A program made the translations under genes and the position numbers. The notes below the pieces were generated by a model. That model made no database searches. It was not told the origin of the DNA and was given only the letters and a program-made list of their open reading frames with translations. A stretch of 9,947 bases of DNA from a virus (lineage: Duplodnaviria > Heunggongvirae > Uroviricota > Caudoviricetes): positions 1 through 9,947 of the IMG/VR virus record IMGVR_UViG_2579779116_000007. One strand, given 5' to 3'. Of this stretch, positions 2,431-9,935 are shown piece by piece. The stretch's first letter is position 1. Each line of letters starts with the position of its first letter.

Positions 2431-2481
2431 CCTCCGGTTAAGGATTAAATTGTATTTACAGCGCTAAATTTATTTATTCAG
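2431..2481 (-). promoter_or_regulatory. 51-bp intergenic module, copy A (AT-rich upstream region plus GGAGG SD) that is not followed by a gene: an empty cassette junction
   Basis: About 92% identical to 3306-3356; its last three bases form the TAA stop of the 118-aa gene; the body that module copy B drives is missing here, replaced by about 25 bp containing a short hairpin (GAGGG-n10-CCCTC, 2415-2434). Confidence 0.55.
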
Positions 2482-2830
2482 TTCTGGATTTTGTCGCCCT
2501 GCGTATCCGCGCTTTCGCGTTACGCTCAATCTGAATTAACTTTTCTATATTTTTCCGTCTTTCCTGTTCCTCCTGGCGCAATAGCCTTACATCATCTGCC
2601 AGTCTGGTTTCTCTTTTCGCCACTGAGAGCATCCAGTCAAACGGCTCCACAACTGCACCGCAGATTTTACAGCGGACCTGACGTTCTTTTTCGTCAACCC
2701 GGACAGAGGCGTGATGGCAATATGGTCTTTCCGATGGCTCATAAAGAAAATTAACCTGATTACGTGGGTCATCCTCTTTTGCCGGAAATAAAACAATATT
2801 ACTTAACTCATCTTCTGGTTTTATTTCCAT
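2474..2830 (-). CDS. Hypothetical small phage protein, 118 aa, with a Cys/His cluster (C-H-H...C-K-I-C) suggesting a zinc-ribbon
   Basis: ATG at 2830 with AGGAGAGGAG SD just upstream on the minus strand; the longer ORF-track start (2956) lacks an SD. Confidence 0.6.
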   Translation of the reverse strand: MEIKPEDELSNIVLFPAKEDDPRNQVNFLYEPSERPYCHHASVRVDEKERQVRCKICGAVVEPFDWMLSVAKRETRLADDVRLLRQEEQERRKNIEKLIQIERNAKARIRRATKSRTE

Positions 2831-3060
2831 ACTCCTCTCCTTTGATGCGCAAGTGGTTTTTCCAGCGGTTTTGCGCCGCGCTTCTGCTCCGCCAGACACC
2901 GTAAAAACGAATAGAGGAACACCCCCTAAAACCCAGATATCTATAATAAATAACAAGCCGATTTGAGATACGGATACGCTGCCCGGGCTTTGCTATCAGC
3001 ATCTTTGCTTTACGGTTTTTCATCGTTTTGTTCTCCGATTAGTTCAGCCATTTTTATTAC

Positions 3061-3076
3061 CGCCCTTTCGGGCGGC
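3061..3076. repeat. GC hairpin CCGCCC-TTTC-GGGCGG, copy B, immediately 3' of the 72-aa gene on the minus strand
   Basis: Identical to 2386-2401 including the following CCTCC; sits 10 bp beyond the stop of the 72-aa ORF. Confidence 0.7.
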
Positions 3077-3085
3077 CTCCCGACA

Positions 3086-3304
3086 TTAATCGTTGTGGTA
3101 ACTCATGGCTTCATTTGCAGCATCAACCGGATCAACCTGCCACCAGCAATAATTTGGGTCGGTTCCTTCAGGTGTCCACGGTTCTAATTCATTTTTTGCC
3201 ACATTCTCGTCACCAGTAATTTTAAAAATCTGCTCCGAGAATTTTTTTACCCACTCGTTATATTTTTCCGCATTAATGGTTTTCTGTGTATTTAACATAG
3301 ACAT
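3086..3304 (-). CDS. Hypothetical small phage protein, 72 aa (moron-like gene bracketed by module B and hairpin B)
   Basis: ATG at 3304 with GGAGGT SD; flanked upstream by the 51-bp module and downstream by the GC hairpin. Confidence 0.55.
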   Translation of the reverse strand: MSMLNTQKTINAEKYNEWVKKFSEQIFKITGDENVAKNELEPWTPEGTDPNYCWWQVDPVDAANEAMSYHND

Positions 3305-3305
3305 A

Positions 3306-3356
3306 CCTCCGGTTAAGGATTAAATTTTATTTACAACACTAAATTTAATTATTCAG
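3306..3356 (-). promoter_or_regulatory. 51-bp intergenic module, copy B: AT-rich upstream region plus SD for the 72-aa gene
   Basis: Supplies the GGAGG SD for the ATG at 3304; contains TTTAGTGTT (minus strand, 3335-3343), the same 9-mer repeated in the immunity-region operators. Confidence 0.55.
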
Positions 3357-3549
3357 GCGCGCGAATCTGTTCCGCACAATGCAACAATGCTTCTGTCACT
3401 TCCTTAAGCGTTACGGTATCGGCATCATCCAGTCCTGCAACTTTTGCGTGCCTGACAAACGCCGCGCAAAGGTCGTTAAACGCCCCTGCCCACACATCCG
3501 CCAGGAAAGCGTTGGCAGCAGCCAATTCTTGGTAGTCAATCCCGCTCAC
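3349..3549 (-). CDS. Hypothetical small phage protein, 66 aa
   Basis: GTG start at 3549 overlapping the upstream stop (GTGA), with AGGAGGTGG SD; the stop TAA lies inside module B. Confidence 0.5.
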   Translation of the reverse strand: MSGIDYQELAAANAFLADVWAGAFNDLCAAFVRHAKVAGLDDADTVTLKEVTEALLHCAEQIRAPE

Positions 3550-3962
3550 TGTGCCACCTCCTGAAAATTACCCTGATAAAACGCCAGCACTCGCTGCATA
3601 ACCTCACTATTCCGGCACTCGCGACAGATTATGTTCTGTCGTCTGTTGTAACGACGTATTTCTCCGTCTGGTAATGAATAAACCAAGTCCGGGTCGCTCT
3701 TTTTTTTCACTGCTGCTTTCGACATCTTTTTGCGGGCCTTTATCCAGTCCTTACGAGCCTGTTCAGACGGGAATAGTCCGTAGCCAGAGTTGTATACATC
3801 ACCACTGGCAACCAGCTCTCTGGCGAGAACGCTCATCAGGTATCTTGTCGCCCCTGTTTTAGCTTCCAGTTGCCGTAACGTCTCGCGCCCACTCTGGCGC
3901 ACGAGTTCAATAACCTGCCCTTTAATTTTTTCCCGCTCTTCTGGTGTAAATACTTTTGCCAT
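3546..3962 (-). CDS. Hypothetical phage protein, 138 aa, basic, with a C-terminal CRECR motif
   Basis: ATG at 3962 with GGAGG SD and a 5-nt spacer; the ORF-track start at 3977 is a TTG without an SD. Confidence 0.6.
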   Translation of the reverse strand: MAKVFTPEEREKIKGQVIELVRQSGRETLRQLEAKTGATRYLMSVLARELVASGDVYNSGYGLFPSEQARKDWIKARKKMSKAAVKKKSDPDLVYSLPDGEIRRYNRRQNIICRECRNSEVMQRVLAFYQGNFQEVAQ

Positions 3963-3977
3963 AGGTGCCTCCGGCAA

Positions 3978-4748
3978 TCACTTTTCCGACACAATACGAC
4001 TGGAGGAATCGAAAATATGTCGAACAATATCCCGGTGCTTGTTCAGCTCCCGCAGCGCGGCGCAGATTCGCTCCCACTTCTGGACATGATTTTTCGCCCG
4101 ACGCAGTTCGCGGTTTGCCATATGCAGCGATGGTAAAACCAGGTCATCCGCTCGCGTTTCAGTAAACGATGGCAGCGACTGCACAATGTCCGCCACCGTT
4201 TCTGTTTTAATATCTTCCTGTGTTGCAACCTCCTGTACTGGTAACGCAACCCCCGCTGGCTGAGGAAAGGCTTTACCATCAGTTTCCGCTACCGATGCGG
4301 CTTTCAGTTCTGCTGATAAATTCTCGCCTGGCATGCAGTAACGAAATTTACCGTTCTGATTAACGCGTGCCAGCCGCCCTGTTGAGGTTACTACCGCCAG
4401 CGTGGAAGCAACCTTGCGAATGCTGACACCGAACTTACCCGCCAGTTCCTCACACGTTTTAGCCCCCTCCTTGCCGATAAACTCAATCATCATGTCAGCG
4501 GTAACTTTTTGTTCGCCCACCCCGGTTAGCACATCCGGTGCTTCAGATTGTACTGGCTGCTCTTCGGTTACCCCGGATTCACCTTCACCAGCCAGAAACC
4601 AGGTATGACCTGTTTTATCAACGACGCCATTTCTTTTGAGTTCCCACAGCTCGTTCAGCACTTCTTCACGACTGATATCAAGTCGCGCGGCCAGTTCCAC
4701 CGACGTGGCTTTTCCCATTGCTTTCAGCGCGTCAAAAACAGTCTCCAT
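3978..4748 (-). CDS. Hypothetical prophage protein, 256 aa, with two winged-helix-like segments (possibly a full-length YdaW/DUF1627-type protein, from memory)
   Basis: ATG at 4748 with GGGAGGAAA SD; two segments with HTH character ([30 protein letters not shown] and [24 protein letters not shown]). Confidence 0.65.
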
Positions 4749-4770
4749 TAAAATTTCCTCCCGGTAAAAA

Positions 4771-5517
4771 TTACTTCTCAATTCCTGGCTGGATGACATT
4801 CGTGCGCCAGCTCTCCCAGTTAAAATTCACCCAGCGACCACCGTTCATGGTCATGCGGTCCATCACGCGCTCGCCAAGCAGCGTATTCATCGCCGTATGG
4901 TTCAGGTTCGTCAGCATCCCGACACTACGCATCGAAGCAGTTCTGCGGTCGACTATCTGGTTCAGTGTGACCTGCTCGTTGCGCGTATCCCGCTGCATTC
5001 CGATTTCATCCAGGACAAGCAGGTCAACATCACACAACCCCTGTAAAAATTTTTCGCCTGAGTTTTTGTTGTCGTAGCTGTTGTGTAACGCCAGCATCAC
5101 ATCAGCCACCGTTATCACAATCACGCTGCGACCTTTCGCCAGAAGATGATTGCCAATGGCGGCTGCAAGGTGGTTCTTTCCGGTACCCGGCTTACCGCTG
5201 AACACAAAATTCGTGCCCCCGGTCATCAGTTCGTCAGCGATGGATTTTGCCTGGCTCAGCGCATGTTTTTGCCCGTCGTTCTGCACCTGATAATTCGCAA
5301 ACGAGCATTTGCTGTGCAGAGGCTGGATGCCCGAACGATTCAGGATTTTTTCCACCCGCAACTGGCGATTCTGGCGGTTGCTCTCCTCGCTACGTTTTCG
5401 CCCTTCAGCCAGTTGCCACTCGCGCCACTCATCCACTGTCCGGTACGGCGCGATTACATGCTGCGGGGTCAGCTTACGGATACGCTCAAGAACACCACCT
5501 GCCGCGATATTTTTCAT
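4771..5517 (-). CDS. DnaC-like AAA+ helicase loader (phage P-equivalent; YdaV-like), 248 aa
   Basis: Walker [18 protein letters not shown] and Walker [10 protein letters not shown]; start lies 6 bp after the O-like gene's stop. Confidence 0.9.
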
Positions 5518-5523
5518 GGCCCG

Positions 5524-6471
5524 TTACCCCCTGAACCCCGGCGGAATTTCGGTATCCGGCTCAGAAATATGATTCACACAACGCTGTACAGACGAACGCC
5601 CCAGGCGGATAACCAGTTCATCCCATTTTTCGCGAAGCTTTGACGGACTCATGATATTTTTTACCCAGAATGGATCCCGCTGCACCCGACCAAACATTTC
5701 ACAAATTTGTCTGTGAGTTCTGCCATCCAGCATCCGCATTGTGCGCACGTCGTTGGCCCATGCGGTCCAGTTGGGTTCTTTCGGTCGCGAAATCTCGCCA
5801 TCATCGCTGGCGGCCTGCTCGTAAAGACTCACGATTCGCCCCCAGATCCACTGTGCACACGCCAAATCTTCCTGGTTACCCCACTGGCGTTTTTTCGCAC
5901 TGAACACAACCGCGTCAGGGTGTCGGGTTAAAAAGTCCTGTTCAGCCGTCTGCATGTCCGGTTGCGAAGCTTCCGGACGAAAAGATCTTTTATCTGACGA
6001 ATCAGGTTTTAATACTGACGGATCGGGGCCAACCATCGCCCCCCTATCCGACTGTTTTTTATCAACGGTTGATCCATCAAAATTTGATGGGTTAACCGTT
6101 GAGGGGGCAATATTTGACGGGTCATTTTTTGCCTGGCTAATTTTTCTTTTCGGTTTATATGCCTCACGCGCCGCCGCTGCTGCTGCTTCGAGTTTTTCCA
6201 CATTAAGACGGTAGATATTGCTTTCATTACGCCCACCGACCTTACGTTCCTCCTTCGTCAGCCAGCCGTTCTTTTCCAGTTCTGCTATCGCAGCTTTAAC
6301 CGTTGATTCACTCTTTGCCCCAATCTGACGACGAATGGTCTCCACCGCAGGCCATGACACACCTTCGTCATTGCTGTAATCTGCAAGGCGAGCCATAACT
6401 GCCACCCTGGATAAGATCATGCCGGTGAAGGCACACCCTTCCCAGACAAGACCATGAAGCTTGCTGCTCAT
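5524..6471 (-). CDS. Replication initiator, O-like/YdaU-like, 315 aa, with an N-terminal HTH and the origin iterons in its linker region
   Basis: ATG at 6471; N-terminal HTH-like segment; Ala-rich and Pro/Ser-rich linker whose coding DNA carries four iteron-like repeats followed by an AT-rich tract; positioned directly upstream of the DnaC-like gene. Confidence 0.8.
   Translation of the reverse strand: MSSKLHGLVWEGCAFTGMILSRVAVMARLADYSNDEGVSWPAVETIRRQIGAKSESTVKAAIAELEKNGWLTKEERKVGGRNESNIYRLNVEKLEAAAAAAREAYKPKRKISQAKNDPSNIAPSTVNPSNFDGSTVDKKQSDRGAMVGPDPSVLKPDSSDKRSFRPEASQPDMQTAEQDFLTRHPDAVVFSAKKRQWGNQEDLACAQWIWGRIVSLYEQAASDDGEISRPKEPNWTAWANDVRTMRMLDGRTHRQICEMFGRVQRDPFWVKNIMSPSKLREKWDELVIRLGRSSVQRCVNHISEPDTEIPPGFRG
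6061..6160. repeat. Putative phage replication origin: four iteron-like repeats (about 15-17 bp each, ending TTGAYGGG-like) plus an adjacent AT-rich tract, inside the O-like gene
   Basis: ATCAACGGTTGATCC / ATCAAAATTTGATGGG / TTAACCGTTGAGGGG / CAATATTTGACGGGTCA at 6061-6124, then TTTTTTGCCTGGCTAATTTTTCTTTTCGGTTTATAT. Confidence 0.6.
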
Positions 6472-6494: not shown

Positions 6495-6920
6495 TTAGTG
6501 CATCACCAAGGCATTTCCTGCCGGGCCACCACGATTCATCTGATTGAAACCAGCGATCGCCACTGCGACAAAATCATCAGCGTCTCTCACCAGTCGTTCC
6601 CGCGTCTCCACCAGCTCCCGAAAATAAGCTGAACTGTGGCTGCGCATTCTGGCCACCAGCAAAGGTGGCATTGCCTTTTCGATCGCTGGTAACAACGCCT
6701 GAATTTTTTCAACTGCATCAGGGGTGTCTTTCTCTACCCAGCGGAAAATTTTCTGGGTATTGCGAGCCAGGGCTTCCGGATGGCTGTCGTCATACAGTTC
6801 AGGAAACGTCATACCCAACTCAAAATAAGCCTGGGTTATTCCAGCTGCCGGAACTTTTTCACCATCCGGATGCGCCCAGGCATTCATCGCCATGCGGATG
6901 TGCTCATGTTTGATTTTCAT
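6495..6920 (-). CDS. ydaT: YdaT-family protein (CII-like regulator, historically annotated as a toxin), 141 aa
   Basis: Start MKIKHEH..., length and position after the Cro-like gene match Rac YdaT as I recall it; its ATG overlaps the upstream stop (ATGA). Confidence 0.75.
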   Translation of the reverse strand: MKIKHEHIRMAMNAWAHPDGEKVPAAGITQAYFELGMTFPELYDDSHPEALARNTQKIFRWVEKDTPDAVEKIQALLPAIEKAMPPLLVARMRSHSSAYFRELVETRERLVRDADDFVAVAIAGFNQMNRGGPAGNALVMH

Positions 6921-7219
6921 GAATCAACTCCATCAGATAAGCATGCACTACAATCACCTTCAGCATGAACTACATGTGTTTGCCCCAAACGAATGCCGCT
7001 CGCATACTCAGGCCAAATAAGCTCCCAATCATGGGGTCGTAGCTCCGCCCTACTTACTTGGCCTTCCGTCGCAGATTCGATCATAAGGGCGCGGGTTGGA
7101 GATATAGCTGCTCGTCCAGACGCCATTTGCGATAAGTAAGATGGCGATACACCAAGTCTGGCCGCGAATTTCTTAGCATCACCAACCCTCAATGATTTAA
7201 TAAACTCTTTTAATGTCAT
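6917..7219 (-). CDS. ydaS: Cro-like HTH regulator (YdaS-like), 100 aa, first gene of the leftward early operon
   Basis: ATG at 7219 with GAGGAAGG SD; HTH-like segment AARLGVSPSYLSQMASGRAAIS; divergent from the repressor gene. Confidence 0.7.
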   Translation of the reverse strand: MTLKEFIKSLRVGDAKKFAARLGVSPSYLSQMASGRAAISPTRALMIESATEGQVSRAELRPHDWELIWPEYASGIRLGQTHVVHAEGDCSACLSDGVDS

Positions 7220-7228
7220 ACCTTCCTC

Positions 7229-7316
7229 GGTTTAGTGTTTTTTTGCGAGTTTAGTGTTTAATAAACCATTAAGTCAAGTATTTGCTTGTTTAGTGATTAC
7301 TAAAGATAATTACCAC
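7229..7316. promoter_or_regulatory. Divergent immunity promoter/operator region: three direct GTTTAGTG(T/A)T repeats and two face-to-face sigma70-like promoters
   Basis: Repeats start at 7230, 7249 and 7288 (19 and 39 bp apart). Plus strand: TTGCTT (7282-7287), 17 bp, GATAAT (7305-7310), then 6 nt to the ATG at 7317, implying a leaderless repressor mRNA. Minus strand: TTGACT (reverse complement of 7272-7277), 18 bp, TAAACT. Confidence 0.55.
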
Positions 7317-7688
7317 ATGCAAAAAAAAGAAATTCGCCGTTTACGTCTCAAGGAGTGGTTTAAAGATAAAACTCTGCCACCCAAAGAGAAGAGCTACCTA
7401 TCTCAACTAATGAGTGGGAGAGCATCGTTTGGAGAAAAGGCTGCCAGAAGAATAGAGCAAACATACGGGATGCCGGAAGGGTATCTGGATGCGGAATACG
7501 CAGAACAACCGGAGGTTTCTCCACCACATGCAGGGTTAACGCCTAATCAACTGGAATTATTGCAGATTTTTTCAGCCTTCCCTGAGGATGAGCAACGCCA
7601 GATAATCAGCGAGTTAAAGCAGAAAAAAGAATCAATGGAAGATCTCATAGCGAGATGGATTGCGGCGCAAAAATGCCGCCGCGCCTGA
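7317..7688 (+). CDS. Prophage repressor / TA-associated regulator (CI/DicA-like, PaaR-like), 123 aa
   Basis: HTH-like segment KSYLSQLMSGRASFGEKAARRIEQTYG; no SD, but the promoter geometry predicts a leaderless start at this ATG; occupies the cI/dicA position; no S24 peptidase domain. Confidence 0.7.
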   Translation: MQKKEIRRLRLKEWFKDKTLPPKEKSYLSQLMSGRASFGEKAARRIEQTYGMPEGYLDAEYAEQPEVSPPHAGLTPNQLELLQIFSAFPEDEQRQIISELKQKKESMEDLIARWIAAQKCRRA

Positions 7689-7708
7689 GTTATAAAACCG
7701 GAGGAAAC

Positions 7709-7900
7709 ATGAATAGAGCCCTTTCACCAATGGTTTCTGAATTTGAAACCATTGAACAAGAAAACAGTTACAACGAATGGCTGCGTGCGAAAGTAGCAAC
7801 GAGCCTTGCAGATCCGCGCCCAGCAATTCCCCATGACGAAGTTGAGCGCAGAATGGCAGAACGCTTTGCTAAAATGCGCAAGGAACGGAGCAAGCAGTAA
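7709..7900 (+). CDS. Antitoxin of the ParE-family toxin (PaaA-like), 63 aa
   Basis: GGAGG SD (7700-7704) with a 4-nt spacer; the stop is 1 nt before the toxin ATG; the size matches the 63-aa PaaA2 antitoxin as I recall it. Confidence 0.75.
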   Translation: MNRALSPMVSEFETIEQENSYNEWLRAKVATSLADPRPAIPHDEVERRMAERFAKMRKERSKQ

Positions 7901-7901
7901 A

Positions 7902-8180
7902 ATGTTACCCGTGTTATGGCTTGAAAGCGCAGATACCGACCTAGATGATATAACTAGTTATATTGCTCGTTTCGACATAGATGCGGCTGAACGCTTATGG
8001 CAGCGATTAAGGGGTTGTGTGCTGCCGTTATCCGAACATCCGTATTTATACCCACCAAGCGACAGAGTACCTGGCTTGCGTGAGATTGTAGCCCACCCTA
8101 ACTATATAATTCTATACCGCGTAACAACATCAAGCGTTGAAGTAGTAAACGTGATCCACGCAAGACGCCAGTTTCCCTAA
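7902..8180 (+). CDS. parE: ParE/RelE-superfamily toxin, 92 aa
   Basis: Typical ParE features: N-terminal W...A..DL..I..YIA and C-terminal YRV...VEVVNVIHARR; tightly coupled to the upstream antitoxin. Confidence 0.8.
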   Translation: MLPVLWLESADTDLDDITSYIARFDIDAAERLWQRLRGCVLPLSEHPYLYPPSDRVPGLREIVAHPNYIILYRVTTSSVEVVNVIHARRQFP

Positions 8181-8251
8181 CTTTCACTACCAATAGAAAC
8201 ATAGCAACCGCAACGACTTTATCAAAAGCGTTGTGTTTGTTACGCTCCGCG

Positions 8252-8296
8252 GTTTAGTTTTTACTTGACTTAAGTTTAATGTTTATTAAACTTAAG
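8252..8296 (+). promoter_or_regulatory. Putative promoter/operator for the ydfA-ydfB-ydfC(-dicF) operon: operator-like GTTTAGTT, TTGACT-16-TAAACT, and a perfect 12-bp inverted repeat
   Basis: GTTTAGTT at 8252-8259; TTGACT at 8265-8270 and TAAACT at 8287-8292; inverted repeat CTTAAGTTTAAT-GTTT-ATTAAACTTAAG at 8269-8296; shares TTGACTTAA...GTTTATTAAAC with the minus-strand promoter at 7255-7280. Confidence 0.5.
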
Positions 8297-8471
8297 ATAC
8301 CAACCCACCCCGAGCCACAGAACGCCAGGCAATACTTCGAGTTATCCGGCAGTGGTCAGGGGATAAGTAGCCAGCCCGAGGCGTAAGAACATGACGGCAG
8401 GGTTCAACTTTAATAACTATGCAGCAGGTTTTTGTTCCGCTACCCCAGCGTTAAGGGGAAATGAGGTCAAC

Positions 8472-9027: not shown

Positions 9028-9348
9028 ATGGAATTTAAAGATTTACCAATGCAATTCCAGGAAATGGCAGCGAATATAGTTCGTTCCCAACTGGCGACTC
9101 TTGACCTGAGTACCGTAGAAAAAGAAACCATCGATACTATATCCGGTAACGTGCGTCGTGCCTTTATCGGTCTGTACGAAGAGAAGCAGCTCTCTGATAA
9201 CCAGGATTTACATGAAAAATACTTCCTGGAACTAATGGACATCATTGATAAGGGGTTTGGCTTGTTAATGAAAAAGAAAGGGATTCGAATAGAACCCCTT
9301 GAAAATTACTTTGCAACAAAAAGCATTAATTCTTTTGATTCAAAATAA
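9028..9348 (+). CDS. Hypothetical protein, 106 aa, AT-rich, acidic and helical in character
   Basis: ATG at 9028 with GAGG SD; clean frame; 3' end overlaps the convergent 91-aa ORF by 23 bp. Confidence 0.55.
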   Translation: MEFKDLPMQFQEMAANIVRSQLATLDLSTVEKETIDTISGNVRRAFIGLYEEKQLSDNQDLHEKYFLELMDIIDKGFGLLMKKKGIRIEPLENYFATKSINSFDSK

Positions 9349-9601
9349 GAGAATTAATTACAGACTTAACATGCTCTTTCTCATGATTGAAGCTCTCATG
9401 ATTGAAAGTGCCGGGTTGAAGCGAGTCGATATAATCAACAAGACTCTGTCGTACGACTTCATTTTTATCCATAACAGATGCAAGAAATGAAATTGCTAAA
9501 AGAGTTATATCACTACGCGCCGCAGCATGCTGCAATGCTTTATCAAAATTATTAATCTGGCGTATCAGGGAGTTAATGATTTCATCATTTTCAGTCGACA
9601 T
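9326..9601 (-). CDS. Hypothetical protein, 91 aa
   Basis: ATG at 9601 preceded by AGGAGGG SD; the ORF-track frame extends 111 codons further upstream into GC-rich DNA with no start signal, so I truncated it. Confidence 0.55.
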   Translation of the reverse strand: MSTENDEIINSLIRQINNFDKALQHAAARSDITLLAISFLASVMDKNEVVRQSLVDYIDSLQPGTFNHESFNHEKEHVKSVINSLILNQKN

Positions 9602-9935
9602 TTCACCCTCCTGAGGGTTGGTGATTAAGGAGTTCTCCACGGGTGAGGTGGAGTGCGTGCGCCGGACACGGGTGAGCATCCGGCACTGACAGTTTACTGA
9701 AAGGATATTTCCCTGAAAAATCAGACCATAACGCGAAAGCGCACGGCGAGGTAGCTGGTTCATAGATAGCCTGTCGTTAAATTTTCGTCGACCGTGCGCT
9801 TCCGGTTGTGGCACTCCGCGAAATGGCGCGGCGGTAAGTATGGCGGGGTTATTCCTTCCCCGTTGAGGACACCGGGTTGTCAGGTTGACCATACGCTTAA
9901 GTGACAACCCCGCTGCAACGCCCTCTGTTATCAAT

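Follow-up and report, generated by a model that had tools for sequence, protein, structure and literature searches.

A paaR2-paaA2-parE2 cassette in the probable immunity region of a lambdoid prophage sequence

The closest described relative of the locus treated here is the paaR2-paaA2-parE2 locus of CP-933P, a cryptic prophage carried by Escherichia coli O157:H7 EDL933. It was studied by Jurenas et al. 2021 (PMC8630535), whose work builds on that of Hallez et al. 2010. Toxicity, neutralisation, operon structure and the ClpAP/ClpXP-dependent decay of the antitoxin are credited to the latter (Mol Microbiol 76:719), and Sterckx 2016 is cited in a later paper as part of the experimental basis. 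A three-component homologue, paaR1-paaA1-parE1, is found in another prophage of the same strain, CP-933M (PMC8630535).

The regulation of the CP-933P locus has been worked out in some depth (PMC8630535). The intergenic region is 97 bp long, and 5' RACE showed that paaR2 is leaderless like cI, with a product that begins MQKKE. In DNase I footprinting PaaR2 covered about 78 bp, and both it and YdaS protected the two promoters; four 18-bp operator repeats with the half-site consensus GTTTAGTAA have been described. The PaaR2 operators overlap the divergent promoters PRM and PR, and PaaR2 represses ydaS-ydaT as well as the distal PL. PaaR2 and YdaS can each repress PR, PRM and the distal PL, the last having the -35 and -10 hexamers of PR. 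At low levels PaaR2 activates PRM, and a PRE-type promoter is switched on by YdaT. The locus behaves as a bistable switch with two heritable states of expression, dependent on paaR2 and ydaS. Transcripts of the toxin-antitoxin genes are made in both of them, and neither showed SOS induction by ParE2. A mini-F plasmid is stabilised by the locus as a whole. PaaR2 lacks a peptidase motif, and its possible origin from a split antitoxin has been discussed in the same paper. Prolic-Kalinsek et al. 2023 (PMC9986795) mapped the YdaT site to the end of ydaS; paaA2-parE2 stand in the place of rexA-rexB and PaaR2 in that of CI (PMC9986795).

The DNA analysed here, called the window throughout, is the whole stretch of 9,947 nucleotides of the IMG/VR record IMGVR_UViG_2579779116_000007. 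A first-pass annotation of its sequence had recognised a regulator gene followed by an antitoxin gene and a ParE-family toxin gene, and had matched the unit to the paaR-paaA-parE systems of E. coli O157:H7 prophages.

Genes, operators and promoters of the cassette

The gene anatomy of the cassette, the identities of its proteins and the presence and conservation of its operators and promoters can be read directly from the window (Table 1). Genes for 63 and 92 amino acids had been placed 20 bp and 1 bp behind the regulator, and both coordinates and gaps proved exact: by direct reading of the sequence the paaR2-paaA2 spacer is 20 bp long, with a GGAGG Shine-Dalgarno sequence at 7699-7703, and the paaA2-parE2 spacer is a single base pair. 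Open reading frames listed at 7254-7688, 7655-7900 and 7806-8180 are the paaR2, paaA2 and parE2 frames with earlier alternative start codons. A terminator scan called no + strand terminator between the three genes. All five reading frames of the cassette (ydaT, ydaS, paaR2, paaA2 and parE2) are intact. Opposite-strand frames at 7360-7527, 7632-7826 and 7768-7893 were rejected, being short, antisense to structure-matched genes and unsupported.

Table 1. Positions of genes and control elements of the cassette and of the adjoining replication genes in the window
Feature	Position	Strand	Description
IstB/DnaC-like ATPase gene	4771-5517		after the HTH_36 gene; Pfam
HTH_36 replication-initiator-like (O-like) gene	5524-6471		next after ydaT; Pfam
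ydaT	6495..6920	-	141 aa; CII-analogue activator of the alternative promoter PRE (function from PMC8630535, PMC9986795); Pfam PF06254 YdaT_toxin, E 7.5e-10
YdaT high-affinity operator OM, TTGATTTTCATGAATCAA	6910..6927	.	spans ydaS stop and ydaT start (4-bp ydaS/ydaT overlap); exact TTGATTN6AATCAA
ydaS	6917..7219	-	100 aa; Cro-analogue HTH regulator divergent from paaR2; Pfam PF15943 YdaS, HTH_3, weak P22_Cro match
OR-type operator/promoter region	7220..7316	.	97 bp between ydaS and paaR2
Operator repeats GTTTAGTGTTT	7230-7240 and 7249-7259	.	in OR-type region
PR promoter-like site	7277-7248	-	-35 TTGACT 7277-7272, N18, -10 TAAACT 7253-7248; faces ydaS
PRM	7282-7310	+	-35 TTGCTT 7282-7287, 17-nt spacer, -10 GATAAT 7305-7310; manual sequence reading
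Operator repeat GTTTAGTGATT	7288-7298	.	in OR-type region
paaR2	7317..7688	+	123 aa; ATG at 7317, TGA at 7686-7688; CI-analogue repressor/regulator without S24 peptidase domain
paaA2	7709..7900	+	63 aa; ATG at 7709, TAA at 7898-7900; antitoxin without DNA-binding domain
parE2	7902..8180	+	92 aa; ATG at 7902, TAA at 8178-8180; ParE-family toxin
Candidate transcript-end hairpin	8202..8242	+	between parE2 and PL-like promoter; weak, inferred
PL/OL-type region	8250..8296	+	about 70-115 bp after parE2; same operator word twice
Operator repeats GTTTAGTTTTT and GTTTAATGTTT	8252-8262 and 8274-8284	.	in PL/OL-type region
PL-like promoter	8265-8292	+	-35 TTGACT 8265-8270, N16, -10 TAAACT 8287-8292; hexamers identical to PR

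The three proteins were compared with the sequences of all solved structures, an alignment that had been proposed as a check, and were scanned against Pfam with the family cut-offs. PaaA2 is identical to PDB 3zbe/5cw7 at 62 of 62 aligned residues (2-63; E 5.5e-37) and also matches 5cze. ParE2 is identical at 92 of 92 residues to 5cw7_B, the ParE subunit in the structure of PaaA2-ParE2 (E 7e-60), and only distantly similar to other ParE toxins, for example Caulobacter ParE1 (3kxe_A, E 3.6e-5). Residues 1-65 of the regulator are identical to the crystallised N-terminal domain of PaaR2 (7nkv, E 1.3e-39; also 8c3k and 8c3l), which carries the title 'Phage repressor protein CI'. PF21217 is the sole Pfam domain found in PaaA2 (residues 16-45, E 1e-19, above the cut-off), and ParE2 contains PF05016, ParE_toxin (E 1.9e-16, 60.9 bits against a cut-off of 23). 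In the 123 residues of PaaR2 no Pfam domain was found at E<=0.01, the S24 peptidase included. The match to the O157:H7 systems is one of full identity for PaaA2, ParE2 and residues 1-65 of PaaR2. Judged by sequence, the unit is paaR2-paaA2-parE2 itself, beyond mere similarity to paaR-paaA-parE systems, and the matches to the solved PaaA2, ParE2 and PaaR2 structures and to Pfam exclude chance as its origin. RefSeq E. coli records still call PaaR2 a 'hypothetical protein' and YdaT a 'toxin YdaT family protein'; PaaA2 stands there as 'RelB family antitoxin' or as hypothetical. These names lag behind PMC8630535.

The regulator does occupy the prophage cI/dicA position, as had been claimed, with paaR2 divergent from the Cro and CII analogues ydaS-ydaT across a shared OR region. 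In this spacer three direct copies of GTTTAGTG(T/A)TT begin at 7230, 7249 and 7288, together with AT-rich inverted half-sites. By the positions of the PRM hexamers, transcription would start at the A of the ATG of paaR2, giving a leaderless mRNA. The GATAAT -10 ends 6 nt ahead of the ATG and a Shine-Dalgarno sequence is absent, consistent with such a transcript; the sequence is likewise consistent with a tricistronic operon.

The operator word recurs in the PL/OL-type region, which also contains a perfect 12-nt inverted repeat (8269-8280/8285-8296). The promoter there points away from parE2, toward a DUF1391/ydfA-like gene at 8391. With two mismatches allowed, the half-site consensus shows no window-wide enrichment (37 matches against 28 expected), and its matches are informative only by their clustering at 7195-7305 and 8252-8291. 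The RNA fold of 8175-8265 has a free energy of -20.4 kcal/mol (z = -2.85 against shuffled controls). Downstream of parE2 the scan for terminators called no canonical intrinsic one, and the candidate hairpin (about 8202-8242) has no directly following T run; it may mark the end of the paaR2-paaA2-parE2 (immunity) transcript.

On the ydaS side, the zero-mismatch form of TTGATTN6AATCAA occurs once in the window, at the OM position (6910-6927). This operator is exact although the YdaT allele is just 86% identical to those of the UTME-1 and O111:H8 loci described below. Toxin, antitoxin, separate regulator, divergent ydaST, OR/OL operators and YdaT site were all found in the window; they are the defining traits of a CP-933P-type cassette that can be judged by sequence.

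Alleles, distribution and surroundings

The cassette was compared with loci from three E. coli strains, a canine isolate, the beef isolate UTME-1 and an O111:H8 strain. The 97-bp OR region is 100% identical in all three, as are PaaA2 and ParE2, and 98-100 of the 100 YdaS residues are identical. PaaR2 is identical at 120-122 of 123 residues (97.6-99.2%), with differences only at linker positions 66, 67 and 76; against UTME-1 they are E66G, V67G and P76S. The corresponding stretch of the window, 7512-7544, encodes E66, V67 and P76 where the E. coli loci have G66, G/V67 and S76, in the linker that follows the crystallised domain. YdaT is more variable, with 138 of 141 residues (98%) shared with the canine isolate and 121 of 141 (86%) with each of the other two. 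The replication protein is about 90-96% identical to those of the three loci, and about 90% to the UTME-1 and O111:H8 alleles. Exact matches to a 50-mer of the window's PaaR2 allele and to a 51-mer of the operator region were absent from a species-representative genome collection.

Prevalence was estimated over 5426 complete E. coli genomes at megablast sensitivity, the counts being aggregate totals for each search. The whole cassette (7200-8320, at least 80% covered) was detected in 595 genomes, about 11%, with 99.6% identity in the best DNA match. The region of paaR2 and its operators (7200-7690) was found in 593 genomes and the toxin-antitoxin pair (7700-8185) in 633, of which 594 matched at 95% identity or more and 39 at 80-95%. 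By these aggregate counts, in these genomes and at this sensitivity, paaR2 without paaA2-parE2 is essentially never found. The 39 genomes with an 80-95% match to the pair and no paaR2 match may carry paaR1-paaA1-parE1 or something of similar kind.

A phage collection yielded one occurrence of the cassette, in Escherichia phage Evi (LR597642.1) and with 98.2% identity; the paper that describes this coliphage gives infant faecal samples as its source. The 40-kb genome of Evi contains terminase, portal, capsid, tail, lysis, Q, integrase and excisionase-like genes. At 20703-20981 it has an intact parE2 (92/92 identical by inspection) that is not annotated in the record. No other CI-like repressor was seen in Evi, where the sole other HTH regulator is an HTH_3-cupin protein beside a GNAT acetyltransferase. 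The occurrence in Evi suggests that the cassette serves a viable phage and, together with the linkage of paaR2 to the toxin-antitoxin pair, fits the published proposal that the pair stabilises the immunity region.

Around the cassette the window is a new mosaic, as is ordinary for lambdoid prophages, and no complete E. coli genome record covers at least 80% of it. The order ydaS, ydaT, HTH_36 gene, IstB/DnaC-like gene is that of a lambdoid immunity and replication region. The replication/early-right module (2474-6471) is itself mosaic; different E. coli prophages match segments of it at 90-96%, none of them the whole window. Two reading frames, 3978-4799 and 3546-3977, stand where related loci have their DUF1627 and DUF977 genes. 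At the right end, a 202-aa frame (9326-9934, -), for which PADLOC gave no match, and a 106-aa frame (9028-9348, +) lie in the early-left region, which in relatives contains ydfC, dicB and kil-type genes.

Two further observations concern the left part of the window. Positions 2-177 on the - strand match the Rfam sok antitoxin RNA (RF01794) at 112 bits, the gathering score being 59, and related loci have hokD annotated just to the left of the point that corresponds to the start of the window. A hok/sok module of type I thus straddles the left window edge and gives the prophage a second toxin-antitoxin system. Farther in, a 365-aa 'Beta protein' gene (565-1662, +; PF14350, E 2e-52; PADLOC PD-Lambda-2_C, E 7e-42) is convergent with, and overlaps, a gene for a 192-aa sce7726-family protein (1622-2200, -; PADLOC 'cll', E 2e-28). 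The two may form a pair for anti-phage defence among the cargo of the prophage; the pair is present in the O111:H8 prophage and absent from the UTME-1 and canine-isolate loci.

Repressor, toxin and alternative readings

The paaR2-paaA2-parE2 genes of the window almost certainly constitute the 'RAE2' operon of a CP-933P/Sp12-type lambdoid prophage immunity region, and no sequence that contradicts this explanation was found. PaaR2 would be the CI analogue, made from PRM as a leaderless mRNA starting at its own ATG. It would bind GTTTAGT-type operators in the 97-bp region that it shares with the divergent ydaS-ydaT operon, and also the second operator set at the PL-like promoter just past parE2. 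PaaR2 and YdaS would compete for these operators, with the two heritable states as the outcome, and YdaT could drive the operon from a PRE-like promoter via its site at 6910-6927. The paaA2 and parE2 genes would ride on the repressor transcript in the position of lambda rexA-rexB, and PaaA2, a small protein without a DNA-binding domain and expected to be unstable, would wrap around ParE2 and neutralise it. If the cassette were lost, PaaA2 would be degraded by ClpAP/ClpXP and ParE2 would damage the cell, probably via topoisomerase, with SOS as the outcome; damage of this kind would make the cassette addictive. This addiction role of the pair is a proposal. DNA binding, repression, bistability, toxicity and addiction are carried over from the literature on identical proteins and an identical operator region, and we infer that the window's copy behaves like the published ones.

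That one regulator governs both immunity and the toxin-antitoxin pair, as the first-pass annotation held, has been shown experimentally (PMC8630535), and the matching sequence elements are present in the window. Its further suggestion, that the toxin is tied to the immunity state, stands in part: the level of transcription follows the switch, but ParE2 activity, measured as SOS induction, was seen in neither state. Activation of the toxin has so far been tied to cassette loss alone, with no link shown to the switch (PMC8630535).

The pair may be asked to do something other than stabilise its locus, namely to act mainly in Rex-like exclusion or abortive infection of other phages. It holds the rexA-rexB position (PMC9986795), is expressed in the lysogen-like state (PMC8630535) and shares its prophage with other candidate defence genes, the Beta protein/sce7726 pair. 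We consider this unlikely: a PADLOC search with PaaR2, PaaA2 and ParE2 returned 0 matches and so gives no support for a catalogued defence system, an anti-phage phenotype is absent from both PMC8630535 and PMC9986795, plasmid stabilisation by post-segregational killing has been demonstrated (PMC8630535), and the near-complete linkage of paaR2 with the pair fits addiction.

Much less probable still is a PaaR2 that is the detached DNA-binding half of a split antitoxin and specific for the toxin-antitoxin pair, with the true immunity repressor elsewhere. Such an origin is conceivable since PaaA2 lacks a DNA-binding domain (it is discussed in PMC8630535), and PaaR2 has no S24 autocleavage domain of the kind found in classical CI repressors. 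However, paaR2 sits in the cI slot, divergent from Cro and CII analogues, and copies of its operator lie across PR and again at a PL-like promoter with PR-identical hexamers. Its control of ydaST and PL has been demonstrated by footprinting, in reporter assays and with stop-codon mutants (PMC8630535), so that published data largely refute a purely toxin-antitoxin regulator. A separate repressor, which had been named in advance as the sign of one, was found neither in the 10-kb window nor in the complete 40-kb genome of Evi, both of which lack another CI-like gene. That the cassette is a decayed, non-functional remnant can hardly be credited at all, even with CP-933P cryptic and the mosaic arrangement of the whole window matched by no complete E. 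coli genome, given its five intact reading frames, a toxin and antitoxin 100% identical to functional proteins, and identical operators.

With the RAE2 immunity cassette as the preferred reading, a wider one can be offered tentatively, as possible though rather doubtful. The PaaR2-TA cassette could be a working immunity module of viable temperate phages in which PaaR2, as sole lysogeny repressor, lacks autocleavage and is inactivated by another route, and in which the toxin-antitoxin pair in the rexAB slot locks the module against recombinational replacement or additionally excludes other phages. This reading draws indirectly on the intact cassette of Evi beside complete structural, lysis and integrase genes, on the linkage of paaR2 and OR with the pair, and on the differing prophage backgrounds. 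As a discovery the locus carries little weight, the system, its structures and its lambda-like wiring having already been published; the cassette had been interpreted correctly at first sight, but it was already known from work of 2010-2023. What is added here lies at the population level: a prevalence of about 11%, the linkage of repressor and toxin-antitoxin pair, and one isolated phage.

Comparison with described systems

RAE2 with ydaS-ydaT of CP-933P/Sp12 in E. coli O157:H7 has the same genes in the same order and spacing as the window, with 100% identical PaaA2 and ParE2 and an identical PaaR2 N-terminal domain. The window also has both the PL/OL set and the OM site for YdaT. According to published data, Sp12 gives no response to mitomycin C. 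The flanking modules differ, and the window has the Beta-protein/sce7726 pair instead of other cargo. The paaR1-paaA1-parE1 homologue of CP-933M, also of three components, is a different locus from that of the window.

Canonical parDE systems (RK2; Caulobacter ParDE1, 3kxe) have in common with this locus a ParE-fold toxin, an antitoxin that wraps the toxin, and addiction via an unstable antitoxin. In contrast to them, PaaA2 has no ribbon-helix-helix DNA-binding domain, PF21217 being its only domain; the pair falls outside the canonical ParD-ParE type and is still of the ParE family. Where the canonical systems use the toxin-antitoxin complex with conditional cooperativity, RAE2 uses a separate third protein and prophage regulators (PaaR2, YdaS and YdaT).

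The likeness to cI-rexA-rexB, cro and cII of lambda is one of layout: a leaderless repressor gene, a divergent Cro-like gene, a CII-like activator, distal operators and two co-transcribed accessory genes, with no sequence similarity to the RAE2 locus. At 123 aa and without the S24 domain, PaaR2 is not of the autocleaving lambda CI/LexA type and is expected to lack the RecA/SOS switch; it works like CI and belongs to another family. Lambda has three operators and the RAE2 locus four 18-bp repeats, and in the RAE2 locus RexAB is replaced by a toxin-antitoxin pair.
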